The notes beneath the pieces were generated by a model. That model saw nothing but the letters and a program-made list of their open reading frames with translations, did not search any database and had not been told where the DNA came from. DNA of 64,000 nt from a virus: the IMG/VR virus record IMGVR_UViG_3300034121_001395, one strand, 5' to 3'. The position numbers and the translations under genes are program-made. This document shows, piece after piece, positions 20,579 to 54,052 of this stretch. Positions within the stretch are counted from its first letter, which is position 1. The number at the start of each line of letters is the position of its first letter.

Positions 20579-21010
20579 ATGAGTAAAACTTTATCGGATT
20601 ATAATGATTCTAGGCCATCGAATGTGGCTAGAAAAAATTTATATTCCGATATAGACAATAGTTTTGCTATACACCCGATTTATAATGACATACGTCCAAT
20701 TCTTGATATTGATTCAATACGTCAAAGTTTAAAAAATTTGTTGTTAACAAATCAATATGATCGGCTGTTTCAACCAGAAATTGCTTCGGACATTCGTTCT
20801 TTGCTGTTTGAAAATGCAAACATGTTTACAGAATATGAGCTAAAGACAAAAATAGAACGAATGATTGATGATTATGAACCACGTATAAGCGACTATGAAG
20901 TGACTGTAGTGGACGAGTCTGATCAAAATGCATATCGGGTGGGCATAACTTTTCAAGCATCATACAATTCAACTGCTGAAATTGTAATATATTTAACACG
21001 AGTACGATAA
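20579..21010 (+). CDS. gp25: baseplate wedge subunit gp25
   Basis: YSDID..F..HP, SIRQSLKNLLLT...RLFQP, YEPR. Confidence 0.92.
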   Translation: MSKTLSDYNDSRPSNVARKNLYSDIDNSFAIHPIYNDIRPILDIDSIRQSLKNLLLTNQYDRLFQPEIASDIRSLLFENANMFTEYELKTKIERMIDDYEPRISDYEVTVVDESDQNAYRVGITFQASYNSTAEIVIYLTRVR

Positions 21011-22878
21011 TGGAAATTCCTACACAATCAGTAAATGTTACAGAATTAGATTTTGATCAAATCAAGGCTAATCTAATAGAATATTTCAAGGCTGGAGACA
21101 GTCCATTTAAAGACTGGGATTATGCTGGGTCTGGATTAAATATGTTGATTGATGTGCTCTCGCATAACACACATTACAATGCATTACTCGCACACATGGC
21201 AGTCAATGAAAGTTTTATTGATACTGCACAGTTACGACAAAACGTGGTGTCTGCCGCAAAGTTAATTGGATATACCCCACGCAGTTATGCCTCTGCAAAG
21301 GCACAAATAAACGTAACTGTAACGCCAAGAAATACATTATTAAATGAATATGTTTTTCCAGTGGGTTCAACTTTTTCATCAAATATAACAGACCTTTCAA
21401 AAAGTCAAACCTATAAATTCACAAATTTAAATGATATTGTCTGCACAAAAAATTCTAGTGGAAACTTGGTAGCAAATAACGTTGACATATATCAAGGTAC
21501 ATTTATTAAAAAGAGAATTCAAATAAATTCTACACAAAGTAATAATGAATATATTATAGATGATAAAAATATTGATACGAGCACGTTAAAAGTAGCGGTA
21601 TATCAAACTGGACGTTCAGAAATTAACGAAGTATATTCTTTATTTACGGATATTAATATTGTTGATGATACAACCCCAATTTATTTCTTATACGAAAACT
21701 ATAATGGCAACTATGTAATATCATTTGGTAATGGTTTATTTGGCAAAAAACCAGATAACTTAAACGTTTTAGAGTTAACATATTTGGTTACTGATGGTAT
21801 TGGCGCAAACTCTTCAAATATTTTTTCATACTCTGATTTTTTTGATTCAACTCAACTAACTCGAGTTAGTTTAAATACAGTTGCAAGTGCAGTTGGCGGG
21901 TCAGACCGTGAGTCTATTAGCAGTATAAAATATAACGCGCCACTTCAATATGTTTCACAAAATCGTGCAGTAACTGCTGATGACTATAAAACATTGGTAC
22001 ACAGTTATCTAACAAATGTAAAATCAGTAGCTGTGTGGGGAGGCGAAGATAATGATCCGCCACAATATGGTAAAGTTTTTATATCTGCAAAAAAATCGGA
22101 TTCTTCATCAGTTTTAACTTCAAATGAAAAACAAGGATTGCTAACATATTTAAGTGATAAAAAAGTACTCTCAATATTTCCTGAAATAGTTGATCCTGAA
22201 TATGTTGATATTGTGCTTGATGTACTCTTTAAGTATAACCGTAACCTGACTACATACACAAAAACACAACTTGAAACAAAGGTTAAAGAAAGTATAGGCG
22301 CATTTAATAGTCAATATTTGGAATCTTTTGATGGTGTGTTTCGTCATTCATTTTTATCAAAGACTGTTGATGGAACAAGTCCTGCAATATTAAATTCACT
22401 TATACGAGTGTTTATTTCTAAAAGTTTTACGTTAGTTAGTGGACAACCGCAAAAAATAACAATAAAATTTGGTACATCATTAACTGTTGACGATAATATT
22501 GCCATTGTAAATTCTACTGGTTGGGTTTATGATGGAGTTACATATTATATTGGTGAAGAGGCGCATCCAACACTGTCTGACATACGCTTGCTATATGTCT
22601 ATTATTATGATGTCAATGATAAACCAATTATTCGTAATAAAGACGTTGGCACGCTTACATTGAGTACAGGAGTAATGGAAATAGAACCGCTACTCGCCGA
22701 CACTGATACCACAATGATAATAGACGTAATACCGCTATCAAATGACCTTGCGCCTAAACGCAACCAACTTATGCGCATTGATACAACACGCCTAAATGTT
22801 TATGGCGAAGTTGACCTAATTGCGGTTGGTGGTTCAAATCGTTCAGTGCAGTATAATACATTTAGTAGAGACCGTTAA
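21010..22878 (+). CDS. gp6: baseplate wedge subunit gp6
   Basis: LDFDQIK, SGLNMLIDVLSHNTHY, ESFIDTAQLR, FGNG.FGKKP, QNRAVTADDY, WGGEDNDPPQYGKVFIS. Confidence 0.96.
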   Translation: MEIPTQSVNVTELDFDQIKANLIEYFKAGDSPFKDWDYAGSGLNMLIDVLSHNTHYNALLAHMAVNESFIDTAQLRQNVVSAAKLIGYTPRSYASAKAQINVTVTPRNTLLNEYVFPVGSTFSSNITDLSKSQTYKFTNLNDIVCTKNSSGNLVANNVDIYQGTFIKKRIQINSTQSNNEYIIDDKNIDTSTLKVAVYQTGRSEINEVYSLFTDINIVDDTTPIYFLYENYNGNYVISFGNGLFGKKPDNLNVLELTYLVTDGIGANSSNIFSYSDFFDSTQLTRVSLNTVASAVGGSDRESISSIKYNAPLQYVSQNRAVTADDYKTLVHSYLTNVKSVAVWGGEDNDPPQYGKVFISAKKSDSSSVLTSNEKQGLLTYLSDKKVLSIFPEIVDPEYVDIVLDVLFKYNRNLTTYTKTQLETKVKESIGAFNSQYLESFDGVFRHSFLSKTVDGTSPAILNSLIRVFISKSFTLVSGQPQKITIKFGTSLTVDDNIAIVNSTGWVYDGVTYYIGEEAHPTLSDIRLLYVYYYDVNDKPIIRNKDVGTLTLSTGVMEIEPLLADTDTTMIIDVIPLSNDLAPKRNQLMRIDTTRLNVYGEVDLIAVGGSNRSVQYNTFSRDR

Positions 22879-22880
22879 GT

Positions 22881-25433
22881 ATGCTTTTAAGTATAGCAAA
22901 TTCGCGCCCGCGTAATATAGAATCAATACAAACCGAAAGTTTGTATCCAGATTCTTTAAAAGAGCCTGCGAGCAATCTTATCAATTTTATTGAGCGCTAT
23001 TATGAGCATCTAAACCGTAATGGTTTGCCGTCAAACGAAATTGCTGCCATTACTCGCGAAAAAGATATTGATATTGTATCTGATAAATATCTAACCCAAA
23101 TACAAAGCCTAATTGCACGCAATATTCCAAATTCACGTGTGCTTGATAAGGTCACTCTCTATCGCGTTATTATACAATATTATCATACACGCGGTTCGGA
23201 AGACAGCATACACACATTTTTCAAACTTTTCTTTGACGAAATTGTAAGTATATTTTACCCTAAAAATTACCTATTTGACTTGTCAGGCGGCGGCGGCCGT
23301 TGGGCCCCAATTGACATACCATCATTACGCACATCAGGCACAAACCCAAATAAAAATACAATTGTTGTAACGTCTGATTATAAAATTGGTCCATTTCCAA
23401 CTTCTGCGGTTGCGCCATATGCTGTCACTCTTAGATGTTTTTCAACTAATCTTTGGACATACGGAGAAGTTGAACAGTCATTTAATCTTCCATATATACA
23501 AAAAGTAAATATTGCCACTGAAGGAGCAGATCCCATTTATCGTTGGGTCTATCGATATAAAGATGACTTTGAGTTATACAGTACAAATGACACGCCTTGG
23601 CCAGATGAAGCAGTTTGGGACATCTTTGCGCGTAACATTGAATATGATGACACAATAGACTCTCAAAATATAGAGTATAGTAGGTTAACTATAACTCCTA
23701 TAGTTCCATCTACAGACACAGAAGAAATACTTGATGAGTCTGGTAAAGTTTTAGTTGATGAGTCTATTACAAACAACGAAATAATTACTGAAAAAATAAT
23801 TACTCTTGGTGATGATAGTATAAACATTTCAGTTTTTGGTTTAGAGACTGAAGAGGGCACGGCAGACTATATATTAACTCAAAAAGGACTGCCTCCTGAA
23901 GACAATGGTATTGTCACAGAAGAAGCGGGCGGCTCAACATATGTAGTTGACATTTCAAATGTCGAGTATGCTCATATATTTAGCGTAACGGCAAGCCCAG
24001 AATATACATCTAAAATTGGTGACCTTATATATTCATTAGAAGACGCACCAACACCAACAATTTATCGGTGTGAAGACCTAGATCCAATTCTATGGAGTGT
24101 AATTCCAAGTGATGAAGATGTATGGACATATTCTGATAACAAATCATTTGCTTCTAATCTATATAAGTTGCATGACGGTTATTATTGGCAAAATTATTCA
24201 TATGAAATCAAAAGTGAATTACCATATGATGAGTGGGGCGATGATTATTTGCGGTTTGTACACCCTTCTGGGTTAAAACTATTTAGCGCTATAATCTTTG
24301 AATTTATTGCTCGTAGTGAATGGTACGATATTATTGACTATGTCGTTCGCAAACCGCAGGAAAGTTATTCATGGCTAAATGCATATCATCCTCCAGTACT
24401 CGGCTATCATAGCCCTCGTAGTCAACCAGGTTGGTTAACGGCAAACGAAAGACTGCTAACAATTATACTTACAAGACTGCTAGATCGCAACGCGCCGGAG
24501 TCTCTAGTACGTATGGTTCAACTTGCCCTTCGCATATTTGCAATTAATGCCAATTATAGAGACAAAGTAGTCTATGAAGACTATCAACGTTGGATAAAAT
24601 TCTTTGATCCAAACGAACTAGTCTCTGGCTTTTCACACAAGACTATTGCTCAGGCAAGTGCGCCATACACACCAAATGCTGATCGACTGTTTAGTAATAT
24701 ATCAAGTTTTATAACATTTAAAGTACTCGATCTTTCATACTACCCATGGTTTTATAGTGAATTAATTCCACTTGATCCAACATATGAAGACACGGACCCA
24801 GAATATGATGAAGCAGTCGTCGAATCTTTTGATATAACTATGGAAGCCTATATGAATAGTACACTTGAAGACAAAGAACCACTAGTTTATCGATATCCAT
24901 TTACTACACAAGATTCAGAGTCATTTTTAACTGAAGACGACGAATACACACTTATAACTGAAGGTCAAACAAATGTGCAAATGGGCACATTTTTCTCAAA
25001 TAAAACTAATATATTTGAAGGCGAATCAGTGAGATTTTATGTAAATACAAAATTTATACCAGATGGCACTATACTATATTATAACATAGTTGGCACAAAT
25101 ATCGAATCGGACTCTGGTAGTTTTGTAATTAAAAATAATTCAGGATATTTTAGAGTTGTGCCGGTATTGGGTGAAAACTCTGGAATATCTGAAACATTTA
25201 CAATTTTTATAAGAAAAGGAGCAACCGATGGGCCAATACTTATTGGCGGCTCAGCACCAGTAATTGTACAAAAAATAGTGTATGAACTTTGGGAATTTGC
25301 AGCTTCTAGTAGTGTCTTAAATGAATTTAGTATTAACACTTTTCCGCCATCACAAGTAGAAATAATATGGGGTGACGCTACACCTTCTACTACAATTAAT
25401 AGCGGAGACACAACTTCTCATACATACACATAA
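22881..25433 (+). CDS. gp7: baseplate wedge initiator (gp7-like) with accessory inserted domains
   Basis: FIERYYE, YHTRGSEDSI..FFKLFF, LHDGYYWQNYSYEIKS, FVHPSGLKLF; follows gp6. Confidence 0.8.
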   Translation: MLLSIANSRPRNIESIQTESLYPDSLKEPASNLINFIERYYEHLNRNGLPSNEIAAITREKDIDIVSDKYLTQIQSLIARNIPNSRVLDKVTLYRVIIQYYHTRGSEDSIHTFFKLFFDEIVSIFYPKNYLFDLSGGGGRWAPIDIPSLRTSGTNPNKNTIVVTSDYKIGPFPTSAVAPYAVTLRCFSTNLWTYGEVEQSFNLPYIQKVNIATEGADPIYRWVYRYKDDFELYSTNDTPWPDEAVWDIFARNIEYDDTIDSQNIEYSRLTITPIVPSTDTEEILDESGKVLVDESITNNEIITEKIITLGDDSINISVFGLETEEGTADYILTQKGLPPEDNGIVTEEAGGSTYVVDISNVEYAHIFSVTASPEYTSKIGDLIYSLEDAPTPTIYRCEDLDPILWSVIPSDEDVWTYSDNKSFASNLYKLHDGYYWQNYSYEIKSELPYDEWGDDYLRFVHPSGLKLFSAIIFEFIARSEWYDIIDYVVRKPQESYSWLNAYHPPVLGYHSPRSQPGWLTANERLLTIILTRLLDRNAPESLVRMVQLALRIFAINANYRDKVVYEDYQRWIKFFDPNELVSGFSHKTIAQASAPYTPNADRLFSNISSFITFKVLDLSYYPWFYSELIPLDPTYEDTDPEYDEAVVESFDITMEAYMNSTLEDKEPLVYRYPFTTQDSESFLTEDDEYTLITEGQTNVQMGTFFSNKTNIFEGESVRFYVNTKFIPDGTILYYNIVGTNIESDSGSFVIKNNSGYFRVVPVLGENSGISETFTIFIRKGATDGPILIGGSAPVIVQKIVYELWEFAASSSVLNEFSINTFPPSQVEIIWGDATPSTTINSGDTTSHTYT

Positions 25434-25452
25434 AGTAAAGTAGTTTTAATTT

Positions 25453-25460
25453 TATAAATA
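25453..25460 (+). promoter_or_regulatory. T4-type late promoter
   Basis: TATAAATA 6 nt before ATG 25467. Confidence 0.8.
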
Positions 25461-25466
25461 ATAGAT

Positions 25467-26501
25467 ATGCCAGATATTAAATTTTCACAATTAGAGGTTG
25501 TACCGGCGGCGGCAGCAAATGATTCAATACCAATTATTGACGCCTCTAACCCACTTATGTCAGAAAATGGCAGCAATGCTATTATATCTGTAGGTGATCT
25601 TGCAGATTCGTTGTTTGACGGACTTTCTGATGGTGCATTGAGCAGTGCCAAGATTCAAACAAATCCAACTTTTACCGGTAACGTTACACTGCCGTCTACA
25701 ACAAGCATTGGCAGTGTGACTGGTATTGAAATAAGCTTCTTGTTAGGATTGAGAGATAATATACAATCTCAACTTGATGGTTTTACTTTTGGCGGTCTAA
25801 CTAGTACAGAAATAGGTTACCTCAGTGGAATAACGTCTAGCGTTCAAACTCAGTTAAACTCTAAAGCACCCCGTGAATCTCCTACATTCACTGGAACTGT
25901 AAGTGGCATTACTGCATCGATGGTAGGATTGAGTAACGTAGACAATACAAGTGATGCAAACAAACCAGTATCGTCGGCGACACAGACCGCATTAAATCTT
26001 AAAGCAAACCTTGCGAGTCCAACATTCACCGGAACAGTGAGCGGTATAACTGCAACTATGGTTGGATTGGGCGCTGTCACAAATGAAAGCAAGTCTACGA
26101 TGTTTAGCAGTCCTACCTTTACTGGGACTCCGTTATCAACTACAGCAAACGTTGGCACAAATACCACTCAAATTGCTACGACGGAATTTGTGCAATCTGC
26201 AATAACTGATAGTTATAATAATATATTAGAAATATCCACATCTACGCTGACTCTTAGCAGCACTCATTATAATAAATATGTGCGTCTTTCAAATGCAAGT
26301 GCTATAACTATTACACTACCCGTTTTAACGTCAGCTCCAGTAGGAACTACAATTACATTTAGACGCAACACTGGCGCTGGTTCATTGACACTAACTGCAG
26401 CAAATGGCGTTACAGTTAATAATAATGATGCCGCAACTGTGCTTGCTGGTGAAGTGTGTGCGATTAAAAATATAAGCAGCAATACTTGGGACTTTATTTG
26501 A
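25467..26501 (+). CDS. short fibre/adaptor protein
   Basis: N-terminal IKFSQL motif; SPTFTG and VDNTSDANKPVS fibre repeats; C-terminal ITITLP...GAGSLTL adaptor-type domain. Confidence 0.75.
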   Translation: MPDIKFSQLEVVPAAAANDSIPIIDASNPLMSENGSNAIISVGDLADSLFDGLSDGALSSAKIQTNPTFTGNVTLPSTTSIGSVTGIEISFLLGLRDNIQSQLDGFTFGGLTSTEIGYLSGITSSVQTQLNSKAPRESPTFTGTVSGITASMVGLSNVDNTSDANKPVSSATQTALNLKANLASPTFTGTVSGITATMVGLGAVTNESKSTMFSSPTFTGTPLSTTANVGTNTTQIATTEFVQSAITDSYNNILEISTSTLTLSSTHYNKYVRLSNASAITITLPVLTSAPVGTTITFRRNTGAGSLTLTAANGVTVNNNDAATVLAGEVCAIKNISSNTWDFI

Positions 26502-26502
26502 T

Positions 26503-27387
26503 ATGTTATTTTCTGCAATTAAAAGAAAGCGACGTCGGCGTAATGTGGGATCAAACGCATGGGCTTTCATTCCACAGGGATCCTTCACGATGGGTGACTC
26601 ATTAGATGGTATCGCAAATGCTACTCCTACGCGTACAGTAACCTTAGATGGATTCTATATATGTAAGTGTGAGGTGACAAGGGGCGAGTGGAATGAAGTG
26701 CGAACTTGGGGATTAATCAACGGATATACAGATTTAGCTTCAGAAACTACGATAAACCCAACTATGGGATTCGGCACAGCTAGCAATCACCCTATCAGTT
26801 ATGTCACTTGGTTTGATGCTGTAAAATGGTGTAATGCGCGTAGTCAGAAGGAAGGACTTACTCCAGTTTACTACAGTGATAGCGCTCAGACCGCGGTTTA
26901 CAAGACTGGAAATACAAATCTACCTAGCACGCATGTAAAATGGAATGCTAATGGCTACAGGCTTCCGACTGAGGCCGAATGGGAAAAAGCAGCGAGGGGA
27001 GGGCTAACTGGGAAAAGATATTCGTTAGGTGATACTATTACACGAGCTGAAGCAAATTATATGAATCCTAGCCAACTTCTCGGGCCAGATATGCCGAATA
27101 CTACTGCAGTAGGAACCTTTCCACCAAACGGTTATGGTCTATACGATGTTGCAGGCAATATTAGTGAGTTGTGTTGGGATTATTATGCAGAAAGTTATAA
27201 CCCTACCGATCTTATTAATCCGCGTGGACCAACCTCAGGTATAAACCTTAACAGTAGAGTACTTCGAGGCGGTAGTTGGGATTCGACAAACGCAACCGAT
27301 GTAAGAGTAGCAATTAGAAATGGTGGTGGCCAACCAGGATCTTCAAACACGACCGGTTTCCGAGTCGTTCGTAGTAAAATAAATTAA
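26503..27387 (+). CDS. FGE-sulfatase (SUMF1)/C-type lectin fold protein, candidate adhesin
   Basis: FTMGD, HP...VTWFDA..WCN, YRLPTEAEWEKAARGG, NGYGLYD.AGN..E.CWD, RVLRGGSW and GFR motifs. Confidence 0.9.
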   Translation: MLFSAIKRKRRRRNVGSNAWAFIPQGSFTMGDSLDGIANATPTRTVTLDGFYICKCEVTRGEWNEVRTWGLINGYTDLASETTINPTMGFGTASNHPISYVTWFDAVKWCNARSQKEGLTPVYYSDSAQTAVYKTGNTNLPSTHVKWNANGYRLPTEAEWEKAARGGLTGKRYSLGDTITRAEANYMNPSQLLGPDMPNTTAVGTFPPNGYGLYDVAGNISELCWDYYAESYNPTDLINPRGPTSGINLNSRVLRGGSWDSTNATDVRVAIRNGGGQPGSSNTTGFRVVRSKIN

Positions 27388-27390
27388 CTC

Positions 27391-27442
27391 TATAAATAAC
27401 AACACGTGTCTAATATAATCACTATTAAAATTATTATAAATA
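27391..27442 (+). promoter_or_regulatory. two tandem late promoters
   Basis: TATAAATA at 27391 and 27435; the second is 6 nt before ATG 27449. Confidence 0.75.
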
Positions 27443-27448
27443 CTGTAT

Positions 27449-28861
27449 ATGGCTACCATAAAAATTTCACAGTTAAGCGAACTAACAGTTGACACAGATG
27501 TAACGTCAAATGACCTCTTACAAATAATTAATATTGAGCAGACTTCGTCGACATATCCAGCTGGTACAAATCGCAAGATTAAAGCGAGTACCCTCGCAAA
27601 TGGACTCTCTCGTCTGACTACAACAATATCACCTGTTGTACAGGCTGCATTAGACAGCAAAGTATCGCTTGAAAACTTTAATAGCGCTGGTTTAAAAATT
27701 GCAGTTCCAGTAGTTGCTGCGTCTCCAGGCCTTAACTATGCGCTGTCTAATATTATTCCAGGTTCTATACTTGATGGAGTAACATTAGTGTCTGGTAATC
27801 GTGTGTTATTAAAAAATCAAACGGCCCCAGCGCAAAACGGAATTTATGTGGTTCAATCATCAGGGGTACCTTTACGCGCAACAGATTTTGACACTCTGCT
27901 AGAAATTAATGACGGCTATGTACTTGTAGATGGTGGCAATACACTTAAAGGCAGCGCATGGGTTGTAACGAGTGTAGTAGAAGAACTTGGCACTGACCCT
28001 ATAAATTTTACTCAATTTTCCTCTGCTATAACTAACGTATCAAAGGCGTCCATTGGATTGGGTAATGTAGACAACACGAGCGATGCAAACAAGCCAATAT
28101 CAACAGCAACTGCAACTGTATTAAACGGCAAACAGGCTACAATAACAGGAGGAGCAACATCAATAGTCTCAAACAATCTTACTGTTAATCGAGCATTAGT
28201 TTCTGACTCGTCTGGTAAAGTTGCAGTGTCTGCTGTCACAAGCACAGAATTAGGACGTTTGTCTGGAGTTACAAGTAGCATACAAAGTCAACTAGATTTA
28301 AAAGCAAATCTTGCAAGTCCTACTTTTACAGGAAATGTATCTCTTCCAAGCACTACAAAAGTTGATGGTGTTACGATTAGTTCTGAATTTATACCAGTGG
28401 GCGCAGTTATTCCATTTGCTATGAATAGTACGCCTGCTGGATGGGTAACATGTAATGGAGCAGTCGTGAATCGTATTGGAACATATGCTGATCTTTTTAA
28501 TGTAATTGGCACTACATATAACATTGGAGGTGAGTCATCGACACAATTTAGACTTCCTGATTTGCGTGGTATTTTTATACGTGGAAGTGGCAGTCAAACT
28601 ATTGATGGAACTTCTTATAGTGCAACCTTTGGTCAAACAGTAAAAGATGCATTTCAAAAATTTACTGGAACTTTAAGAATTGATTCCTGGATGAAAGGTA
28701 CTGGTGTTTTTTCAGAAAACACAACTCCTAGCTCGTATATTGATAATACTGGCGCTACAGATACTGGCTCAGAAGTTACTTTTGATCCAAGTACTGTAGC
28801 TAGGACTTCAAATGAAACTCGCCCAGTAAATATTGCTTTACGTTATTGCATAAAATTCTAA
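27449..28861 (+). CDS. tail fibre with phage tail collar domain
   Basis: IKISQL N-terminus; RVLLKNQT..QNGIY; PVGAVIPFA..TPAGW..CNG, FRLPDLRG.FIRG, ETRP.NIAL.YCIK. Confidence 0.85.
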   Translation: MATIKISQLSELTVDTDVTSNDLLQIINIEQTSSTYPAGTNRKIKASTLANGLSRLTTTISPVVQAALDSKVSLENFNSAGLKIAVPVVAASPGLNYALSNIIPGSILDGVTLVSGNRVLLKNQTAPAQNGIYVVQSSGVPLRATDFDTLLEINDGYVLVDGGNTLKGSAWVVTSVVEELGTDPINFTQFSSAITNVSKASIGLGNVDNTSDANKPISTATATVLNGKQATITGGATSIVSNNLTVNRALVSDSSGKVAVSAVTSTELGRLSGVTSSIQSQLDLKANLASPTFTGNVSLPSTTKVDGVTISSEFIPVGAVIPFAMNSTPAGWVTCNGAVVNRIGTYADLFNVIGTTYNIGGESSTQFRLPDLRGIFIRGSGSQTIDGTSYSATFGQTVKDAFQKFTGTLRIDSWMKGTGVFSENTTPSSYIDNTGATDTGSEVTFDPSTVARTSNETRPVNIALRYCIKF

Positions 28862-28873
28862 TAAATATAAAAT

Positions 28874-30025
28874 ATGCCAGTTAAAATTACAGATTTACGT
28901 GCATCAACTACTATTACAGGTAATGATTTTATTCAAATTATTGATAGTGATGACACTGACATGTCTCCTACCGGAACAAATAAAAAAATAACTGCATCTA
29001 ATGCTGCAAATCAACTTGCAAATTTAATTTCTAGTGTGCCACCTATAGTTGTGTCGTCACTCGCAACAAAGGCAAATCTTAATTCTCCTACATTTGATGG
29101 AAATGTAGTGTTACCAGACACAACCTCTATAGGAGCCGTTAATAGTGCTGAAATAGGACGGTTGTCTGGTGTTACAAGTTCTATTCAAACACAATTAGAT
29201 CTTAAGTCACCGCTTGCAAGCCCAACCTTTACTGGAACAGTTACTCTTCCAACTGGTACTGTAACGAGTGGTATGATCCTTGATGGCACAATTGTAAATG
29301 CTGATATTAATGCATCTGCTGCGATTGCTGGAACTAAAATATCTCCAAATTTTGGATCACAAAATATTGTAACAACTGGTACGACAACAGCAACAACATT
29401 TATAGGTGCACTTACTGGAAATGCTAATACCGCAACTATTCTTCAAAATGCCAGAACAATTGCAATTTCTGGCAGCGTAAGTGGAACGGCAACTAGTTTT
29501 AATGGAAGTGAAAATATTACAATTCCTGTTACAATTAATGATTCTTCCATAACAACTTTAAAGATCGCGGATGCTAATGTAACCCAAGGTAAACTTGCAT
29601 CTAATGTTGCAGGAAATGGCCCGACATTTAGAGCATATGCCGGCACAACTACAACACTTCCAACCAACTCTCATACAAAAATAAACCTTACGATTGAAGA
29701 ATTTGATACAAATTCAAACTTTTCTAATAGTAGATTTACGCCAAGTGTAGCTGGTTATTATTTAATAACTGGAACAATAGCTACAAATACATCCTCAATA
29801 TTTTCTATTTTAGCGTCAATATCAAAAAATGGAAACATTGTTTCATTTGGTTCTGGACAGGTCAATGCAGCGGGATTAAGATCTACAGTGAGTGATATAA
29901 TTTATCTAAATGGATCATCTGATTATGTTGAGCTTAATGGATATCATGTGTCCAGCACAAGCGCAGTAATAGCAACTGGGGGGAATCAAACATACTTTTC
30001 TGGTTGCCTTATTAGGTCGGCATAA
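28874..30025 (+). CDS. fibre protein with C-terminal C1q-like head
   Basis: VKITDL N-terminus; SPTFTG repeats; FDTNSNF...RFTP.VAGYY...YLNGSSDYVEL...FSG. Confidence 0.75.
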   Translation: MPVKITDLRASTTITGNDFIQIIDSDDTDMSPTGTNKKITASNAANQLANLISSVPPIVVSSLATKANLNSPTFDGNVVLPDTTSIGAVNSAEIGRLSGVTSSIQTQLDLKSPLASPTFTGTVTLPTGTVTSGMILDGTIVNADINASAAIAGTKISPNFGSQNIVTTGTTTATTFIGALTGNANTATILQNARTIAISGSVSGTATSFNGSENITIPVTINDSSITTLKIADANVTQGKLASNVAGNGPTFRAYAGTTTTLPTNSHTKINLTIEEFDTNSNFSNSRFTPSVAGYYLITGTIATNTSSIFSILASISKNGNIVSFGSGQVNAAGLRSTVSDIIYLNGSSDYVELNGYHVSSTSAVIATGGNQTYFSGCLIRSA

Positions 30026-30116
30026 ACAACTTTCTAAAAATATTTACAAAATTTCATTACACTCTTTGTTATTGCAACTAAAAAAATTTATATAAATACA
30101 TTAAATATATCCTAAT

Positions 30117-31502
30117 ATGGCAGCAATCGTAACAGACTCCTTTCGTAGAAATAATACACAATTTTTTCTAGACAATATTGCTCTTACAGACAGTAAATAT
30201 TATCTTGGGCTTGGTAAATCTGAACAATGGGCGACCGACGAGGAGTCAACAAGTTTAGTTATACCTATTCCTCTCGGAATTCCTTCAGATGACTCTGATA
30301 TAAAATCAAATTTAACTACATTAATTAAGATTAATGCGTTTAGTAGCGGACTGGTAATTCCACAAATAAAATGGAAAGCTGGCGCTCGCTATAAGGCATA
30401 CGGCCCAACTTATCCTGATTGTTTTTATCCTAGCACGCTTATTGGTGGAGGAGAAGTTAATCCATGCTATGCAGTTATAAGTGGACGAATTTATCTATGC
30501 TTAAAGGCTGGCGACGGAGCAGTTGCTAACATTCCAGTGTCTACCGACTATCGTGCCCTTAGTTATGGCAGTGATGGTTATATATGGATACTTGTTGATA
30601 ATGTAGTTACTGCAACTGCAAATATCAATACTGATCAATTTATTAGCATTTCTTCTGGAGTTGCTGCTGATTCAATTTCAGCAGCAATTGAAAATGATGG
30701 TGGAGGGTTATTATATGGATTTACAGTAACTTCTGGAGGCAGTGGATATACATCTACAAATTCTGTTCAGTTTGTTGCGCGAAAAAACAATAACACCGAA
30801 ATTACAATAACATGCCCAGTAAATATAAATTCTACTACTGGAGCGATTGAAAGTGTGCTATTGCCTGCTGACTATTCTTATATCTCGGAGTCTTCAAAAG
30901 GTATAGTTGATGGATATTTTATTTTTGGCCCGGCTGAAACTGGATCTGGGGCGGTTATAGTTCCACATATTGCTCCTGCCAGTGGATTTGCATACAAACC
31001 ATCAGCAACTTTACCATCGTGGTATGTTGGAATTGCGGTAGACGCAGTTGATACCATTTCGGATGATGGGTTGTATATACCGTATCGTCAAATATCAATA
31101 TTAAAAGATATAGAATATTCTGAAGGTTCATCAATTGATACACTAGCTGCGCTTCGTTACCTAACATTAGCGTCTGCTCCAACAAGTACTCCTCCAGTTG
31201 GTAGTTTAATAACTTTTGGTACGACTGGAATAAAGGCGTATTTTGATAACTATTCTGCTGTTTCTGTTGGTGGAAGCACTCAACATCGTGTTTATTTTCA
31301 CCAAAACTCAACTACTGGATATGGTGTGATACCATCAACTGGTTCATTTACAGCGCCTAATAATAACACTATAAATTATTTAACAGTAAATAATAATGAG
31401 TATACACCACGTAGCGGCGAAGTTATATTTGCTGAAAATCGCAAAAAAATAAATCGTCAAAGTGCTCAAACTGAAGAAATCAAGATTATTATTCAATTCT
31501 AA
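30117..31502 (+). CDS. gp8: baseplate wedge subunit gp8
   Basis: MAAIVTDSFR, YLGLGK, DGYIW, YRQI, SGEVIFAENR..I.R...QTEEIKIIIQF; TATAAATA at 30091. Confidence 0.85.
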   Translation: MAAIVTDSFRRNNTQFFLDNIALTDSKYYLGLGKSEQWATDEESTSLVIPIPLGIPSDDSDIKSNLTTLIKINAFSSGLVIPQIKWKAGARYKAYGPTYPDCFYPSTLIGGGEVNPCYAVISGRIYLCLKAGDGAVANIPVSTDYRALSYGSDGYIWILVDNVVTATANINTDQFISISSGVAADSISAAIENDGGGLLYGFTVTSGGSGYTSTNSVQFVARKNNNTEITITCPVNINSTTGAIESVLLPADYSYISESSKGIVDGYFIFGPAETGSGAVIVPHIAPASGFAYKPSATLPSWYVGIAVDAVDTISDDGLYIPYRQISILKDIEYSEGSSIDTLAALRYLTLASAPTSTPPVGSLITFGTTGIKAYFDNYSAVSVGGSTQHRVYFHQNSTTGYGVIPSTGSFTAPNNNTINYLTVNNNEYTPRSGEVIFAENRKKINRQSAQTEEIKIIIQF

Positions 31503-37269: not shown

Positions 37270-40200
37270 ATGGATTCAATTCAATTTTCAGAATTTTCTA
37301 CTGTTGGTGTTAATATATCTGACACCTTTGATATTTGGCGTCAAAAAACGAATGGTGTAGTAACAGAACTAACCGATTTGCGTAATGATATATCGCCATT
37401 ATTTTATAGTACTGGCCAAAACTCATCGTCATTGCTGCGTACTGTCACTCTTGATACACCACAAACAATCTCTGGTATCAAAACCTTTATCGGTGGCACA
37501 TCAACCGCCCCAGTGCTAAAGATTGGGGAGGTTGGACTCTATGAAAGTGACGGAGCGCTATCAACCACAACTCCGATTCAAGTAAATAAACTTATATTAC
37601 AGTCTCAATTACAATTTGGTGAACATGCATATGCTATACCAAACACAAACCCAAGTGAAGCCTCGATCTTAGGAAAGTCTGGAAACTCTCTGTCATGGAC
37701 AACGCTAAGTAGCATAATCTCTCAAGTTCAAAGTGAAGGTGCTGCAAATGTTGTAAGCACAAATGAAATTCTTGCAGTTGGTTCTCTCGTTGATTATGCT
37801 CCGAATGGCACCACATTTTCTTCAGATTGGTTACGTTGCACTGGATCACGTTTTCAAGGGAGTGCATACCCAGAACTTGCGACTGCGTTATTAAATAAAT
37901 ATGCCGCAATCTATACAACTCAAACCGGAAATACGATTGCTCCTTCAGTGTCATACAATGCTTCTTGGTGGTATACTTTGCCAAACATAAGCGGAGCACT
38001 CATAAAAGCAAAACCAGATTCTGTAATTAATACATTTATAGATCGTGGTAATGTATTTGATATAATACGAGGCACAGAGTCTATTCAAAGTCTGTCTATT
38101 GCAAATGGTGGCACTGGTGTGTTAAACTTACGCTATGACCCAACATTAACTATAAATGTTGATCGTCAGTTGGGTGTTGCACCTCTTGCAATTACGTCTG
38201 ATCGACTTGCAAACAACTCAGTCAGCCCTTCTAAATTAAGTCTTGGTGGTCCGTCATGGGATTTAACTTCTGCAGCTTTATATGAAGGCAATGACGTTAA
38301 CACCCGTCGTAGAGTTGCAACACGCGAATATGTCGACTCACTCGTATTTAAAAAGGGACCTGCTGCAAAGTTAGCAAGTAAACCTTCGCATTCTCCATAT
38401 AGTTCTGCTCCTGGATTTGGCGAGTTTTGTTATATAAATCATGACGGCGTTCCAATAATATCTGGAAGCAATGGATATAATAGATTTGGCTATGCTGATA
38501 AATTTTCACATTGCGAAATGCCATTGCCAGACAACAGGAAAGCAGTGCAGTTGCATGTTAATCGATATAATATGTGTGCTCTTGATGATGAGGGTGAGTT
38601 ATGGGCACTTGGAAATATTTGGCATAATCCATTTAATATTGTTCCATTTCCAGGAACAGCAAATGTAGATTCACGAGTAAAAGAATGGACAAAGGCATAC
38701 AATCCCCTCTATAACTATTCAGCTGACAATAAAATAGCTAAAGTTGTAATTAGTGGTGGTTATGACATTAACAACGTTGCCGTAATCGACACATCAAATC
38801 GTCTTTGGATTGCAGGATATAACCAACATGGTGTATTAGGTCGTGGTAACAATGGGACAACTACTACAAGTACTGCAACAAAACCAACTGGAGAGACAAC
38901 ACCAGTACTTGAAAATGTGTATGACGCATGTATTATTGGTACATGGTCAGGAGCAGCTGAATATGCAACATGTATAGCACTAACTTCAACTGGTATACGT
39001 GTATCTGGATATGGTAGTAGCGGTTTACGTGGTGACGGATTAAATCCAGCAGCAGTTAATAATACATTTAATACTGTTACAATATCAGGTATCTCTGACT
39101 ACTCGTCATGCAAACTGTATGCTGGAGGAGAAGACTCTGCAACTACAGCATTTTTAATTACAGACTCTGGAAATGTAGTTTATGGTTGGGGTTATAATGG
39201 TAATGGAATACTTGGCGATAATACAACATCAAATAAAAATCGTCCAACTGTAATTTGGGAAAATCCAGATTTAAACATTGATAAGGTTTATACGACAACA
39301 CACGCGGATGGAACAGGCGCAGCATACTTGTTTGGTAGTAAAAATAACTCTACTGCAAAACTCGGTTCTGATATAATTTCAACTGTTAGTGATCACCTTT
39401 TAGGAACGTCTATTAGTTCCAATGATGCTGGCAGTATAATCGCAGCTGGCTCTCCAGGTGTTGGAACTGGACGTGTACAATGCTATCAATATTCTGGAAC
39501 AGCATGGAATGCATATGGAGCAATTATAAATGGTTCTGAAAACGCCAGTAATTTTGGTAATTCTGTAAGCTTAAGCTCGTCTGGTAATCGCCTTGCAATT
39601 GGTATACCTGACGGACAACGTGTAGGCTCAGAAATTAGAGGACAAGTGCGTATTTATGATTATTCTGCTGGAACCTGGTCTCAACTTGGTACAAATTTAA
39701 CTGGTGAAAATAAAAATTTATCGAAATTTGGTAATAGTGTCGCATTGTCTGGAAATGGTAACGTCTTAATAGTTGGTGCACCAAACACAAATAGACTAAT
39801 CAGTGGTGTAAACACTACAAATGTTGGTCAAGTATTTGTTTATTCTTTAGTTGGTGCAAATGCTGTTGAACTTGGATCATCAATATACGGGTCTGGAGGA
39901 GGCCAACTTTGTGGATCAAATGTTGCAATTAACACTGACGGTACCATAATCGCCATTTCTTCAATGGGTGTTTCTAGTGCGGGAGTTGTTAGGATTTATC
40001 AATTAGTGGCAGGTCAATGGTCGCAACTAGGTGGAGACATTGCTGGAAATAGTGCAAACGATAATTTTATTAATATATCACTCAGTGGTAATGGCACTAG
40101 AATTGCAATAGGTGCACCTGGTAGTGATATCAATGGAGCAAACAGTGGACAAACACGAGTATTTGAGTACAACTCAACTATAACTACTTGGGAACAGATT

Positions 40201-40980
40201 GGTACAAACATCAATGGGTTTGGTATAGGAGACGCTAGTGGAAGTGATGTTGTATTATCGCGTGACGGACAAAATCTTGCAATAGGCGCACCAAATGCGG
40301 ACTCACTTGGAAGAACTGATAATGGATATGTTCGTCTGTATAAACTCTTAGGTAATAGTTGGAAATTATTAACCGGTAATTTATCTGGAGAAAATTCTAA
40401 TGAAAAATCAGGATCAGTTGTTGCACTCAGTTCAGATGGCAATACTGTAATAATTGGTGCCCCAACATATAATGCGAATCGTGGACTTGTTCGTGCAATA
40501 TCTTTTGTATCTACTCCAACAATAACTAATGAGTTATGGTGTTCTGGTACAAATACTGGAAATAAATTTGGTATAACTGGAAACAGCAATCAATGGAGAC
40601 TGTCTGGTCCACTGCCGTCTGGATATAGTCTCCAAGACTTTTGGTGTGGTAATGGATTTTATTCGGATAATGTAAACTTTGCAAAGGGTTATCGTCAAAG
40701 TGATGACAAATATTACTTGTTTGTAGTTGGTGCAAATAGTAGTTATCAAAGTGGAAATGGTAGTAATATACAGCTAAATACTTGGACTCGTCTTAATTTA
40801 AGTTCAGAAATTGTACAAAAAATAGTTGACATCCAGTGCGTGTCTCCATACGGTTCTGAGGATTATACAATTTTATTATTAGACGATGGCACATTATATT
40901 TTTCTGGACATAATGCCTATATGATTGATCCAAATTTACCAAACAACGCTTACAGAACAGACTTTACACGCATTAAATAA
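37270..40980 (+). CDS. large fibre/adhesin with collar-like, RCC1-like and FG-GAP-like propeller domains
   Basis: DTFDIWRQKTN N-terminus; WLRCTG..YPELA collar; RCC1-like LW..GYN..G.LG repeats; seven G.SV.LS..G..LAIGAP repeats. Confidence 0.8.
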   Translation: MDSIQFSEFSTVGVNISDTFDIWRQKTNGVVTELTDLRNDISPLFYSTGQNSSSLLRTVTLDTPQTISGIKTFIGGTSTAPVLKIGEVGLYESDGALSTTTPIQVNKLILQSQLQFGEHAYAIPNTNPSEASILGKSGNSLSWTTLSSIISQVQSEGAANVVSTNEILAVGSLVDYAPNGTTFSSDWLRCTGSRFQGSAYPELATALLNKYAAIYTTQTGNTIAPSVSYNASWWYTLPNISGALIKAKPDSVINTFIDRGNVFDIIRGTESIQSLSIANGGTGVLNLRYDPTLTINVDRQLGVAPLAITSDRLANNSVSPSKLSLGGPSWDLTSAALYEGNDVNTRRRVATREYVDSLVFKKGPAAKLASKPSHSPYSSAPGFGEFCYINHDGVPIISGSNGYNRFGYADKFSHCEMPLPDNRKAVQLHVNRYNMCALDDEGELWALGNIWHNPFNIVPFPGTANVDSRVKEWTKAYNPLYNYSADNKIAKVVISGGYDINNVAVIDTSNRLWIAGYNQHGVLGRGNNGTTTTSTATKPTGETTPVLENVYDACIIGTWSGAAEYATCIALTSTGIRVSGYGSSGLRGDGLNPAAVNNTFNTVTISGISDYSSCKLYAGGEDSATTAFLITDSGNVVYGWGYNGNGILGDNTTSNKNRPTVIWENPDLNIDKVYTTTHADGTGAAYLFGSKNNSTAKLGSDIISTVSDHLLGTSISSNDAGSIIAAGSPGVGTGRVQCYQYSGTAWNAYGAIINGSENASNFGNSVSLSSSGNRLAIGIPDGQRVGSEIRGQVRIYDYSAGTWSQLGTNLTGENKNLSKFGNSVALSGNGNVLIVGAPNTNRLISGVNTTNVGQVFVYSLVGANAVELGSSIYGSGGGQLCGSNVAINTDGTIIAISSMGVSSAGVVRIYQLVAGQWSQLGGDIAGNSANDNFINISLSGNGTRIAIGAPGSDINGANSGQTRVFEYNSTITTWEQIGTNINGFGIGDASGSDVVLSRDGQNLAIGAPNADSLGRTDNGYVRLYKLLGNSWKLLTGNLSGENSNEKSGSVVALSSDGNTVIIGAPTYNANRGLVRAISFVSTPTITNELWCSGTNTGNKFGITGNSNQWRLSGPLPSGYSLQDFWCGNGFYSDNVNFAKGYRQSDDKYYLFVVGANSSYQSGNGSNIQLNTWTRLNLSSEIVQKIVDIQCVSPYGSEDYTILLLDDGTLYFSGHNAYMIDPNLPNNAYRTDFTRIK

Positions 40981-44424: not shown

Positions 44425-44622
44425 ATGAATTTAGAAGATTTTAAACGCGCAACAATTGCCCAAGTAAGTGAATTTTGGAGATTTACGACGTCTGGAACCA
44501 CCACACTATCTAATTTTAATGTGACTACTAGCAGTGGTAATATTAAAATTATTTGGTCTGATGGTACGCCGCCAGACATTGCTACCTCTGGTCAAAATAT
44601 TTCCCATATATATACCTTATAA
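44425..44622 (+). CDS. small PKD-like half-domain protein
   Basis: IIWSDG...SHIY motif; similar to the gp7 C-terminus. Confidence 0.65.
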   Translation: MNLEDFKRATIAQVSEFWRFTTSGTTTLSNFNVTTSSGNIKIIWSDGTPPDIATSGQNISHIYTL

Positions 44623-44624
44623 CT

Positions 44625-45641
44625 ATGCCTACTAGATCTATCAACATTGTACCGCAAAATGGTAATGCCTCAGTAACGGCAATAAACTGTGGTACTTCAA
44701 CCCCAAAATTAGGCGGCACAATAGATGTATCTGCTTTTCCTAATTTGCAGGAGTTTAGGTGCAATTCTAATGATATAACAGCATTGTCTGGTTATACAAA
44801 TAATAGCAATTTGACAATTGTGGATTTTGCTGTTAATAAAGTAACTGGTTCTATCCCCGGTTTGACTGGGATGAGTAATTTACAAACTTTTCGTTGCCAC
44901 ACAAATCAACTTACCGGATCGATTCCAAGTTTGACTGGGTTGAGTAATTTACAACTATTTGCATGTCACACCAATCAACTTACCGGATCGATTCCAAGTT
45001 TGACTGGGTTGGCTAGCTTGTTAACATTAAACGCTTACAATAATTTGATTACTGGGAGCATTCCATCATTAACTGGAGCGCCCAATTTACTTAATTTGTT
45101 TATTCAAAGTAACCAACTTACCGGATCGATTCCAAGTTTGACTGGGTTGAGTAATTTACAAGAGTTTCATTGTGAAATAAATCAACTTACTGGATCGATT
45201 CCAAGTTTGACTGGGTTGAGTAATTTACAGGGTTTTTATTGCCACACAAATCAACTTACCGGATCGATTCCAAGTTTGACTGGGTTGAGTAATTTGCGAT
45301 ATTTTTATTGCAATAACCAACTGGGAACAACAAAATTAACAGGATCTATTCCCAGTTTAAGCGGATTGAGTAATTTGCAATCTTTTGATTGCACCCTAAA
45401 TCAACTTACTAGCTTTGCGGGTGGTTCTGTTTCTGCTACTTTAGGAGACTTTCGAGCTAATGTTAATCTATTGTCAGCATCAGCAGTAAACGCGATTTTA
45501 GCGGCTTTTGTTGCTGCCAATAAAACAACCGGGACAAGGGTATTAAATCTTGGCGGAACTGGTAATGCAGCCCCAACCGGTCAAGGGCTAACAGACGTGA
45601 CTACGTTGAGAAATCGTGGATGGTCAGTTACTACAAATTAA
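44625..45641 (+). CDS. leucine-rich-repeat protein (23-aa NQLTGSIPSLTGLSNL repeats), candidate adhesin
   Basis: About ten LxxFxCxxNxLTGSIP repeats with N- and C-terminal caps. Confidence 0.9.
   Translation: MPTRSINIVPQNGNASVTAINCGTSTPKLGGTIDVSAFPNLQEFRCNSNDITALSGYTNNSNLTIVDFAVNKVTGSIPGLTGMSNLQTFRCHTNQLTGSIPSLTGLSNLQLFACHTNQLTGSIPSLTGLASLLTLNAYNNLITGSIPSLTGAPNLLNLFIQSNQLTGSIPSLTGLSNLQEFHCEINQLTGSIPSLTGLSNLQGFYCHTNQLTGSIPSLTGLSNLRYFYCNNQLGTTKLTGSIPSLSGLSNLQSFDCTLNQLTSFAGGSVSATLGDFRANVNLLSASAVNAILAAFVAANKTTGTRVLNLGGTGNAAPTGQGLTDVTTLRNRGWSVTTN
44835..45410 (+). repeat. intragenic 69-bp tandem repeat
   Basis: Units start at 44904, 44973, 45042 (diverged), 45111, 45180 and 45249; core AATCAACTTACCGGATCGATTCCAAGTTTGACTGGGTTGAGTAATTT. 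Confidence 0.95.
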
Positions 45642-45645
45642 TATT

Positions 45646-45915
45646 ATGATTAAAATATATACAAAACAATTAGAGGCAGAAGAAATAATTTCTTCTCCAG
45701 ATAAAGTTTATACAACGGAACAAGATTGGTGGATGATATATGATGCTACCACTAAACAAATAATTGTAGAACCGCAACAATGCTCTGGCTATACTTCAAG
45801 CCCTCTTGCTATGGTTATTGCTGATGCTATAGAAGAACTTGAGCAATATATTGCTGATAATAATTTAATATTTAAAAATAAACTTCAGCCAAACTACATT
45901 GGCGAGGAATTATAA
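45646..45915 (+). CDS. hypothetical protein
   Basis: ATG 45646 in ORF 45616..45915; tightly coupled to the LRR gene. Confidence 0.65.
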   Translation: MIKIYTKQLEAEEIISSPDKVYTTEQDWWMIYDATTKQIIVEPQQCSGYTSSPLAMVIADAIEELEQYIADNNLIFKNKLQPNYIGEEL

Positions 45916-45924
45916 ATAATTAGT

Positions 45925-47496
45925 ATGTCAACACCAATTAATTTAGGTCCATATTTACTTAACGCTCCAACAGAAACTGAAAAGGGGCATATACGTAATA
46001 GTTTAAGTCTTGGATCAGCTTCTCTTTTACAAGGACAATTTTTAGATAATAACAGATTAGAATTTGCTGACCCAAATAATTCTACTCGTAAAATTATACT
46101 TGATAAAACTCTTTTTGGATCAGCGGTAGCCGATCGTTTACGTTTTGCGCGGGCACTTAACATTACCGGTGAAGTTACTACAGCAACTCCAATTCCACTT
46201 TTCGATGGAACTGAAGACGTTAATATACCAATAAGCATTAATCCTGGAGCAATTACTGAATCTAAATTAGCTACAGACGCTGTAGTTGCATCTAAAATTA
46301 AAAATGGTGAAGTTACTCCGGCAAAACTTTCTGCTGGAGGACCATTTTGGGCTGGCAGCACTACATTTTTATCATCTGGTCTAGAACTTGGAAATAACAT
46401 TATTGCCGATGGTTCTTCTTTTGTAGATTTTCATTCATCTTTCCCAATAGTTGATTATGACGCTCGAATAGAACGCAAATCAGGTGTTAATGGAGCATTA
46501 GATATTATTAATGTCGGTACTGGTCCAATAAATGTTGGCTATGGTTTGTCGATTGCATCTAATAATACAGTAACCACATCACGTCAATTAATAGGCAGAT
46601 TAGAAATTATTGGAAATCAAATTAATACGACGTTTGCAAATAATGCAGAAATTGCGCTCAACTTTGAAAACAGCGATAGTACGGTTGCAAATTTCTTAAA
46701 TACTACAATATACAACGGTAAACGTGAAGTTTCTGCAAAGTTTTTTGGTGACACAAAAACACTTGAAACATATGGGCCGTGTCGTTCAGTAACAAACGGA
46801 CAAGTTGGGTGGGCTACCGCTGGACTTGAAACACGCAGCACATCTGGAAATACATTGCTAGCATTACATGCTGTTGGTTCAACCGCAACTCTATTAAAAC
46901 ATGTTCGTGGCGGATCAGGATTAGAAATACGTGACGCGGGAGACACTGGCTTTGCTCCGCTGAAGGCTTCAACATTTACAGGTAATAACGCGCTCTATTT
47001 AAACTACGAAACTCCAACAATATATCTTCAAGACACAAATCATCGTGGTTCGATGATATATGTAGACAACAATATATTTTCTATACGTCGGTCGTCTGGC
47101 AATAATTCTACAACGATGCAAGATCTTAATGGTCGTTGGCCACTAGACATCAACCTAGAGACAAATAACGCGACCTTTGGTGCAGATGTAAATGCTGCTT
47201 CATTTACTTCTCGTTCTTCGATTCGTTATAAGAAAAACATACAACCGCTACAAGATTCGCTGTCTAAAGTAAACTCGTTAAATGGAGTTTCATATGTTTG
47301 GAAAGAAACTAAAAAGGCTGATCTTGGATTAATAGCAGAAGAAGTGTATAAGGTTTATCCAGATCTTGTGCATAAGACAGAGACTGACGAAGTTGAGGGC
47401 ATAGATTATGGAAAATTAACTGCGGTACTTATTGAAGCAGTAAAAGAGTTGACTTGTCGTGTACAGACCCTTGAAAAACAATTAAAACAAAGATAA
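45925..47496 (+). CDS. tail fibre with C-terminal peptidase S74 intramolecular chaperone
   Basis: SS.RYKKNI, LNGVSY.WK, GLIAEEV..V.P.LV, IDYGKLTAVLIEAVKEL; TATAAATA at 45911. Confidence 0.88.
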   Translation: MSTPINLGPYLLNAPTETEKGHIRNSLSLGSASLLQGQFLDNNRLEFADPNNSTRKIILDKTLFGSAVADRLRFARALNITGEVTTATPIPLFDGTEDVNIPISINPGAITESKLATDAVVASKIKNGEVTPAKLSAGGPFWAGSTTFLSSGLELGNNIIADGSSFVDFHSSFPIVDYDARIERKSGVNGALDIINVGTGPINVGYGLSIASNNTVTTSRQLIGRLEIIGNQINTTFANNAEIALNFENSDSTVANFLNTTIYNGKREVSAKFFGDTKTLETYGPCRSVTNGQVGWATAGLETRSTSGNTLLALHAVGSTATLLKHVRGGSGLEIRDAGDTGFAPLKASTFTGNNALYLNYETPTIYLQDTNHRGSMIYVDNNIFSIRRSSGNNSTTMQDLNGRWPLDINLETNNATFGADVNAASFTSRSSIRYKKNIQPLQDSLSKVNSLNGVSYVWKETKKADLGLIAEEVYKVYPDLVHKTETDEVEGIDYGKLTAVLIEAVKELTCRVQTLEKQLKQR

Positions 47497-48909: not shown

Positions 48910-48940
48910 TCATCATATTAAAATATTATAAATATAGAAT

Positions 48941-54037: not shown

Positions 54038-54052
54038 TATAAATATATCTAC

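Follow-up and report, generated by a model that had tools for sequence, protein, structure and literature searches.

A leucine-rich repeat gene of a T4-like lake phage with homogenised repeat cores and differing unit numbers among assembled contigs

Introduction

Phages are known to vary their receptor-binding proteins rapidly by means of DGRs, invertible segments and the exchange of fibre modules between phages. In plants, unequal crossing-over changes the number of leucine-rich repeats (LRRs) in R genes. The closest known phenomenon to the one described here is that of the high-internal-conservation (HIC) repeat domains of fungal NLRs. In these domains (WD40 repeats of HET-E/HNWD, ANK and TPR repeats), the DNA of the repeats is nearly identical, and about four positions per repeat, located on the binding surface, are hypervariable and under selection (PMC13449251). 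The number of HIC repeats is polymorphic in populations, with concerted evolution through unequal crossing-over or conversion as both cause and consequence, whereas NLR arrays with low internal conservation keep a constant length (PMC13449251).

Among phages, the design that comes closest is that of the T-even adhesin gp38, in which conserved glycine-rich motifs (GRMs) separate hypervariable segments (PMC3157838). LRRs are also present in the DUF7941 proteins of the chimallivirus Goslar, for which a role in host recognition was suggested and not demonstrated (bioRxiv 10.64898/2026.04.21.720040). Our literature searches did not reveal any phage for which LRR unit polymorphism had been described. 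Here, we describe an LRR gene of a T4-like lake phage that probably changes by recombination between the near-identical cores of its units, a process known from fungal and plant immune receptors and not from phages.

Results

Genomic context of the LRR gene

The stretch of DNA analysed (64,000 nucleotides; hereafter, the window) belongs to a 106.6-kb virus record of IMG/VR, IMGVR_UViG_3300034121_001395, which is about 48% complete according to CheckV. The GC content is 37.7%. T4-type baseplate wedge genes at 21010-31502 are followed by a long run of fibre-like genes. The LRR gene (44625-45641, plus strand; 338 aa) is flanked by a 595-aa virion-structural-like gene at 42635 and by a gene at 45925 encoding a 523-aa fibre with a Peptidase_S74 chaperone domain; a fibre-assembly-like gene (phrog_1084/3304) is located at 48941. 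Gene junctions around the LRR gene measure only 2–4 nt.

The T4 late-promoter word TATAAATA is present in 15 copies, 14 of them on the plus strand. Six copies precede an ORF start at a distance of 7–19 nt, which is 7 nt in five cases, and are located at 25453-25460, 27435-27442, 30091-30098, 45911-45918, 48927-48934 and 54038-54045. No copy was found between 30091 and 45911, which suggests that the LRR gene is probably part of one long late transcript. A scan for promoters and terminators revealed nothing informative. Fibre-like neighbours, tight junctions and flanking late-promoter words are the features expected of a tail-fibre or receptor-binding protein gene, that is, a place in the tail-fibre module and late expression.

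Repeat units and their shared cores

From the N-terminus, the encoded protein consists of a cap remnant and irregular first repeats, followed by eight 23-aa units and a C-terminal cap that is conserved. TRF reported a 69-bp period at 44860-45311 (6.6 copies), and a separate repeat search found seven copies with a spacing of 69 nt. In codon register, the unit array U1–U8 (44838-45401, plus strand) has unit starts at 44838, 44907, 44976, 45045, 45114, 45183, 45252 and 45333. U7, which starts at 45252, is 81 nt long and carries a 4-aa insertion. The register of a unit is Q-L-T-G-S-I-P-S-L-T-G-L-S-N-L, then Q-x-F-x-C-x-x, then N, and its form can be written as QLTGSIPSLTGLSNL-QxFxCxx-N.

A shared core, on the plus strand throughout, was found in U2 (44907-44954), U5 (45114-45161), U6 (45183-45230) and U7 (45252-45296). 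The U2 and U5 cores are identical over 45–48 nt, while U6 is marked by ACT at codon 3 and U7 by TTG at codon 15. U3 has a partial core (44976-45011), in which the first 36 nt are identical and the sequence then diverges. Among U2, U5, U6 and U7, nucleotide identity is about 84–87% over the whole unit and 96–100% in the core. Of the sites that segregate among the four units, 2 fall in the core (45 nt) and 13 in the variable part (21 nt; Fisher p = 8e-7), and their mean pairwise difference is 2.2% in the core versus 43.7% in the variable part. The cores of U1, U4 and U8 are divergent (10–22 of 45 nt differ); thus, only four to five of the eight units are near-identical. The shared identical stretches constitute direct repeats of 36–48 nt at 69-nt spacing.

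If codons were chosen independently under the codon usage of this phage, four units would agree at all 15 core codons with a probability of about 1e-20, which excludes codon bias as the explanation. The cores include codons that are rare in this phage, namely ACC (8%), TCG (7%) and GGG (5%).

Predicted fold and binding face

Pfam LRR_4 matched six stretches of the ORF (1.1e-23; 83 bits against a cut-off of 27). The repeat consensus, L-x-x-F-x-C-x-x-N-Q-L, is of the LxxLxLxxN type that characterises the LRR superfamily profile, with Phe and Cys standing in for two framework Leu. An AlphaFold2 model based on 57 homologues had a pLDDT of 96 and a pTM of 0.91. DSSP assigned to each unit of this model one inner beta-strand of three residues, at positions 17–19 (x-F-x), and the C-terminal part contains helices at residues 285–298 and 320–330. 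The best Foldseek matches in the PDB were the ectodomains of the plant LRR receptor kinases BRI1, MIK2, RGFR1 and FLS2. A relative that includes the N-terminal cap aligned to MIK2 with a Z of 35 and an rmsd of 2.2 Å over 379 residues. The strands of the model and this alignment agree with the curved solenoid of the LRR superfamily, which has one inner strand per repeat.

LTGSIP is present in seven of the eight units, and U4 has ITGSIP. The units thereby carry the L(S/T)GxIP motif of the plant-specific (PS) LRR class, but their length of 23 residues (69 nt) differs from the 24 residues of that class. In LRR geometry, positions 17 and 19 face the solvent on the concave side, and positions 16, 21 and 22 lie at the rim. 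According to the model, each 23-aa unit most likely contributes four to five exposed residues (16, 17, 19, 21, 22) to the concave face.

Variability in the LRR family

We found more than 3,600 metagenomic homologues at E ≤ 0.001; unit counts in the family range from 2 to 12. In 497 units from 120 homologues, the binding-face positions 16, 17, 19, 21 and 22 were the most variable (entropy of 3.2–3.65 bits), whereas the framework positions G4, I6, P7, L9, L15, F18, C20 and N23 had an entropy below 1.3 bits. Conservation in the L(S/T)GxIP motif of these units was 88% for T, 100% for G, 93% for I and 99% for P. The 120 proteins held 717 distinct binding-face heptads. Those of the window are almost unique, as one of them recurs once in another homologue. 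Cassette exchange between lineages was considered and rejected, since the lineages have essentially no variable heptads in common.

These results bear on a preliminary description of the locus made from the sequence alone. It had read the gene as an LRR gene of the plant receptor-kinase type whose variable codons lie on the binding face. The Pfam match and the pLDDT of 96 support the first part of this claim and the best structural matches the second; the variable codons indeed flank the inner strand of each unit and correspond to the positions of highest entropy in the family. The structure prediction that it had called for yielded a confident LRR solenoid. Its core of about 47 bp, nearly identical in four units, is that of U2, U5, U6 and U7. 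The fifth unit, placed at 44973 and said to share the first 39 bp, is our U3 at 44976 with its 36 matching nt; the earlier unit starts lie 3 nt upstream because the preceding AAT was included. All eight variable heptads that it quoted (QTFRCHT to QSFDCTL) are correct.

The orthologues L004 and L006 are 92% identical, and both keep ten units across 8% divergence, in arrays of low internal identity. Between them, dN/dS is 1.18 on the concave face, a value that derives from 9 substitutions and is not significantly above 1; it is 0.18 elsewhere and 0.05 in the C-terminal cap. The cap (45402-45638, plus strand) bears a family signature (…AVNAILAAFVAANKTTGTR.LNLGGTGN…RGW.VTTN) that is conserved in all relatives, and it is under strong purifying selection.

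The cap motif was found at one locus among 185,579 reference prokaryote genomes; elsewhere, it occurs almost exclusively in uncultured phages. The single locus encodes a 736-aa protein in a Chloroflexota MAG (L026, JBDLTZ010000167.1). The contig also has matches to a phage-type HNH endonuclease and to tail-fibre assembly, and it is probably a phage contig that was binned into this MAG. Since the lone match lies on a phage-like contig, it offers no trustworthy clue to the host.

In other phages (L007, L008, L026), the LRR and C-terminal cap together form the C-terminal end of longer proteins. In the high-GC phage L008 (8118-8324), only three units stand at the end of a 413-aa protein whose N-terminal part is unrelated, which indicates that the module combines with different N-terminal modules. 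Two neighbouring units of L008 are identical in protein and differ by 1 nt in DNA. A relative with 62% identity (L003, 1089-1595) has a block duplication of about three LRR units, including a 27-aa unit with an NQTGVxK insertion; multi-unit duplication thus occurs within the family. No match to the 10 kb around the LRR gene was obtained by megablast against GenBank phages. With tblastn, only weak similarity to LRRs was detected (Leptospira phage LE1 and Listeria contigs, about 30% identity), and these searches yielded no characterised phage homologue of the LRR protein.

Age of the cores and of the variable parts

The variable parts of U2, U5, U6 and U7 differ from each other by about 40–50%, often at 2–3 nt per codon, which equals their distance to the variable parts of U1 and U8. 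The homogenised cores differ by 22–24% from the cores of U1 and U8 and by 0–4% from one another. Variable divergence at this old level next to near-identical cores suggests that the variable parts are old and that the cores were made alike recently. Judging from the sequence, U3 appears to be a mosaic, or to hold a conversion-tract boundary, after 36 nt. Young cores, old variable parts and the boundary in U3 together represent the signature of short-tract gene conversion or unequal exchange. Recent duplication of whole units followed by point mutation does not agree with these observations.

Array forms in near-identical contigs

Next, contigs were retrieved by exact look-up of neighbouring small proteins and of close homologues, which yielded at least nine other assemblies. 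Compared with the window, the upstream flank had no mismatch over 3.5 kb, and the downstream flank had 0–1 SNP over 3.5–6.5 kb (to the contig ends). Four forms of the array were found between these flanks. Form A has units U1–8 (338 aa) and is present in the window, in L017 and in one JGI contig without DNA; L018, L020 and P0123 hold parts of it. Form B is U1-2-3-4-7-8 (292 aa; L010), and form C is U1-3-4-5-7-8 (292 aa; L012, a 173-kb contig). Form D is U1-7-8 (223 aa) and was found in L011 (ENA) and in a junction contig, L019 (JGI). Additional array forms were sought through cluster look-ups and among shorter proteins, and none was found.

All four forms are in frame, and the junctions all fall within shared cores. 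In form C, the hybrid unit has ACT at codon 3, as in U6, and TTG at codon 15, as in U7; this locates the exchange to the 33 nt between the two markers. No unit showed any point difference across the at least nine assemblies, which indicates that there is no ongoing hypermutation and that unit number alone changes. The variants are collinear subsets of the 8-unit form; duplicated, reordered or new modules were not seen among them. The assembled contigs make it likely that the 8-, 6-, 6- and 3-unit forms are real and not products of assembly.

Six contigs (L014, L015, L018, L020, L024 and L025) break in or near the array. Two of them, L018 and L020, are JGI and ENA contigs from different samples, and both stop exactly at window position 45340, at the start of U8. 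This shared end may reflect yet another population variant, located downstream of U7. Mismatches in BLAST alignments on the downstream side of the array had raised the possibility of form-linked strain haplotypes. This possibility was rejected, because the base-by-base comparison gave 0–1 SNP, and the BLAST mismatches thus came from misaligned repeats.

The 65-aa ORF and a half-domain of the baseplate

A 65-aa ORF (44425-44622, plus strand) precedes the LRR gene and is homologous to the N-termini of the ORFs of L003, L004 and L006. In relatives with about 60% identity, the LRR is fused to a beta-rich cap, and the 65-aa ORF corresponds to the N-terminal part of this cap. A search for a Pfam family matching the N-terminal cap found none. 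In the window, the two ORFs are separated by TAA-CT-ATG and lie in different frames. The split is identical in all near-identical contigs, and many homologues start at the same point. A frameshift error at the (AT)4 run was considered and rejected, given the identity of the split across independent assemblies, the usual TAA-NN-ATG junction and the starts of the homologues. Hence, the split is stable.

A model of the complex between the 65-aa protein and LRR residues 1–140 scored 0.90 versus 0.00 for the best control, a pass that is expected, since the two halves are fused in relatives and the alignments derive from fused forms, and that shows likeness and not binding. The mark is reached by 58 of 80 solved complexes and by 2 of 110 mismatched pairs. 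The runs agreed in at least 97% of contacts, with a partner pLDDT of at least 86.

The 65-aa ORF also matched the last 51 residues (25278-25433, plus strand) of a gp7-like baseplate wedge protein in BLASTP (38% identity, E 3e-8). This protein is encoded at 22881-25433, and the 5' part of its ORF matches the baseplate wedge family phrog_17744. An SHxYT motif immediately precedes the end of both sequences, which stop at the same point, and in the record a profile of the half-domain matched these two only. They are homologous half-domains, the missing strands of which would lie at the N-terminus of the LRR ORF, so that the first approximately 40 LRR residues could complete either. Docking would then proceed by N-terminal strand complementation with the 65-aa protein or with the gp7 C-terminus, and the latter is a possible docking site for the LRR protein.

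Discussion

The reading that we favour, with somewhat better than even confidence, is that of an LRR adhesin with homogenised cores, the unit number of which is changed by recombination in a clonal phage population. The framework DNA of four to five units would be homogenised by short-tract gene conversion or unequal recombination, and the older, diverged binding-face codons would survive this homogenisation. The homologous recombination of the phage itself would delete whole units in frame between cores, and presumably it would duplicate units as well. A clonal phage population would thus hold 8-, 6-, 6- and 3-unit solenoids with different concave surfaces, and unit number could thereby alter host range. 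Singer et al. reportedly found in 1982 that T4 recombination is efficient from about 50 bp of homology; cores of 48 nt would sit at this threshold. A more far-reaching version, which we regard as tentative and doubtful, holds that the cores are kept as a contingency locus, with unit turnover far above point mutation and with the LRR clipped onto the baseplate through completion of the half-domain at the gp7 C-terminus. Every burst would then contain particles that differ in their concave binding surface.

An unlikely, though by no means negligible, alternative is that only the 8-unit gene exists, that the 6- and 3-unit forms result from assembly collapse, and that the cores are a passive trace of conversion. 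Collinear subsets with junctions in the cores are what a mis-traversed repeat graph is expected to yield, form D corresponds exactly to the maximal loop-out, many contigs end in or beside the array, and the 100% identical flanks provide no strain marker that separates the forms. However, the shared core of at most 48 nt is far shorter than the final k of 141 of the ENA contigs and is spanned by single reads. Furthermore, the length of the contig with form C implies good coverage, form D was obtained independently in ENA and JGI assemblies from different samples, and unit number clearly changes over the evolution of the family. It is very improbable that recent tandem duplications of whole units were followed, without any gene conversion, by very strong positive selection on the binding-face codons only, or by the action of a mutator, DGR-like or of another kind, targeted at them. 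Such a history would leave identical cores next to differing variable codons, and the concave-face positions are indeed the fastest evolving in the family. Against it stand variable parts near saturation versus 2 changes in 45 core sites, the mosaic U3, and variable codons without a single point difference in at least nine assemblies. In the 106-kb record, there was also no RVT_1 match, second copy or template.

Still less credible, to the point of being hardly worth entertaining, is a VLR-like assembly in which the expressed gene is put together from copies of modules stored as donor cassettes at other places in the genome. The constant flanks and variable faces of the LRR modules do resemble VLR cassettes, and the preliminary description had drawn on this likeness: it proposed that recombination or gene conversion between constant cores shuffles variable modules, as in lampreys, and diversifies a receptor-binding protein without reverse transcriptase. 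Recombination between cores agrees with the four array forms, the junctions inside cores and the mosaic U3. Shuffling does not, since module order is constant, and neither does diversification within the population, as variable codons differ only between units and between phage lineages. The lamprey analogy fails: the ORF is complete in every contig, unlike the incomplete germline VLR gene with its donor bank; no second copy of the core or the protein was found in the 106-kb record, where donor copies were to be sought; an exact search with 33 nt of the core gave no match in IMG/VR or JGI metagenome contigs; and the heptads of the window are not common to other lineages, bar the one that recurs once. 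As for reverse transcriptase, the earlier view is in keeping with a search for RVT_1, which gave no match in the 106-kb record (3 of 14 named genomes were positive as controls); a template copy, the other hallmark of a DGR, was likewise not found in it. As the record is about 48% complete, the absence of donors and of reverse transcriptase holds for these 106 kb only. An alternative of a different kind concerns the role of the protein, which might be an intracellular or secreted effector (e.g., for anti-defence or host takeover) whose gene happens to lie in the late region. The ligands of LRRs are of many kinds, and neither experiment nor homology links the protein to a characterised receptor-binding protein. 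Nevertheless, we consider an effector improbable, given that the gene is embedded among fibre genes with tight junctions and no late-promoter word of its own, that long tail-module proteins of other phages carry the LRR module at their C-terminal end, and that the gp7-like baseplate protein ends in a second copy of the N-terminal half-domain partner. The gene encodes a monomeric LRR solenoid, which, to judge from the gene neighbourhood, most likely acts in host binding, as an adhesin accessory to the tail or baseplate.

The favoured reading, that of an adhesin with recombining cores, resembles the fungal HIC repeats in several respects. The repeat identity of 80–100% that characterises HIC is found for U2, U5, U6 and U7 and partly for U3, and not for U1, U4 and U8. 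The hypervariable positions are few (16, 17, 19, 21, 22) and lie on or next to the inner strand of the binding surface. Repeat-number polymorphism would correspond to the four assembled forms with identical flanks, which assembly collapse could mimic. As in fungi (PMC13449251), the arrays with diverged cores (L004 and L006) keep their length, whereas the homogenised array of the window probably varies. The fungal proteins differ in being eukaryotic intracellular immune receptors with WD40, ANK or TPR repeats. The phage gene belongs to a tail module, has 23-aa LRRs of which four to five out of eight are homogenised, has so far shown only unit loss, and lacks NB-ARC/NACHT.

Like gp38, the LRR protein would be a small modular adhesin of the T4 superfamily, in which a scaffold alternates with hypervariable segments and the N-terminal part serves for attachment. 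The two are unrelated in sequence and fold, and the GRMs are not identical tandem DNA repeats. Recombination between conserved motifs is known for gp37/gp38; gp38 varies between phages, whereas here a single clone would vary in unit number. The L(T/S)GxIP motif, the solenoid and the hypervariable xxLxLxx residues are shared with plant LRR receptor kinases and receptor-like proteins (BRI1, MIK2, FLS2 and RGFR1; Cf-type R genes). The phage protein differs from them in its 23-aa unit and its own C-terminal cap, and it has no kinase, transmembrane segment or plant-type cysteine caps. The VLRs of lampreys and hagfish likewise place their diversity on concave-face residues of LRR modules, but they are assembled somatically from donor cassettes into an incomplete germline gene. 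DGRs, as in Mtd of Bordetella phage BPP-1, also diversify a phage host-binding protein at defined codons on a stable scaffold; Mtd is a C-type lectin, whereas the protein described here is an LRR protein, with no reverse transcriptase or template repeat found and no point variation in the population. The Goslar DUF7941 proteins are phage proteins with LRR or beta-helix domains as well (bioRxiv 10.64898/2026.04.21.720040). They belong to another phage family and have another N-terminal module, and neither repeat homogenisation nor unit polymorphism is reported for them.

If the favoured reading is true, a switch in LRR repeat number that depends on recombination alone would be a further, very simple route for the variation of receptor-binding proteins, and would permit bet-hedging in host range without reverse transcriptase or invertase. 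Its counterparts, on the opposite side of a host-parasite conflict, would be the HIC repeats of fungal NLRs and the LRRs of plant R genes. Since the family is large (more than 3,600 homologues) and uncharacterised, it may be a major unrecognised class of host-recognition proteins in freshwater phages.

The fibre region of the window contains another candidate repeat protein. At 37270-40980, a 1236-aa ORF matches the PHROGs annotation 'regulator of chromosome condensation' (RCC1-like beta-propeller repeats), and it is a further candidate for host binding.
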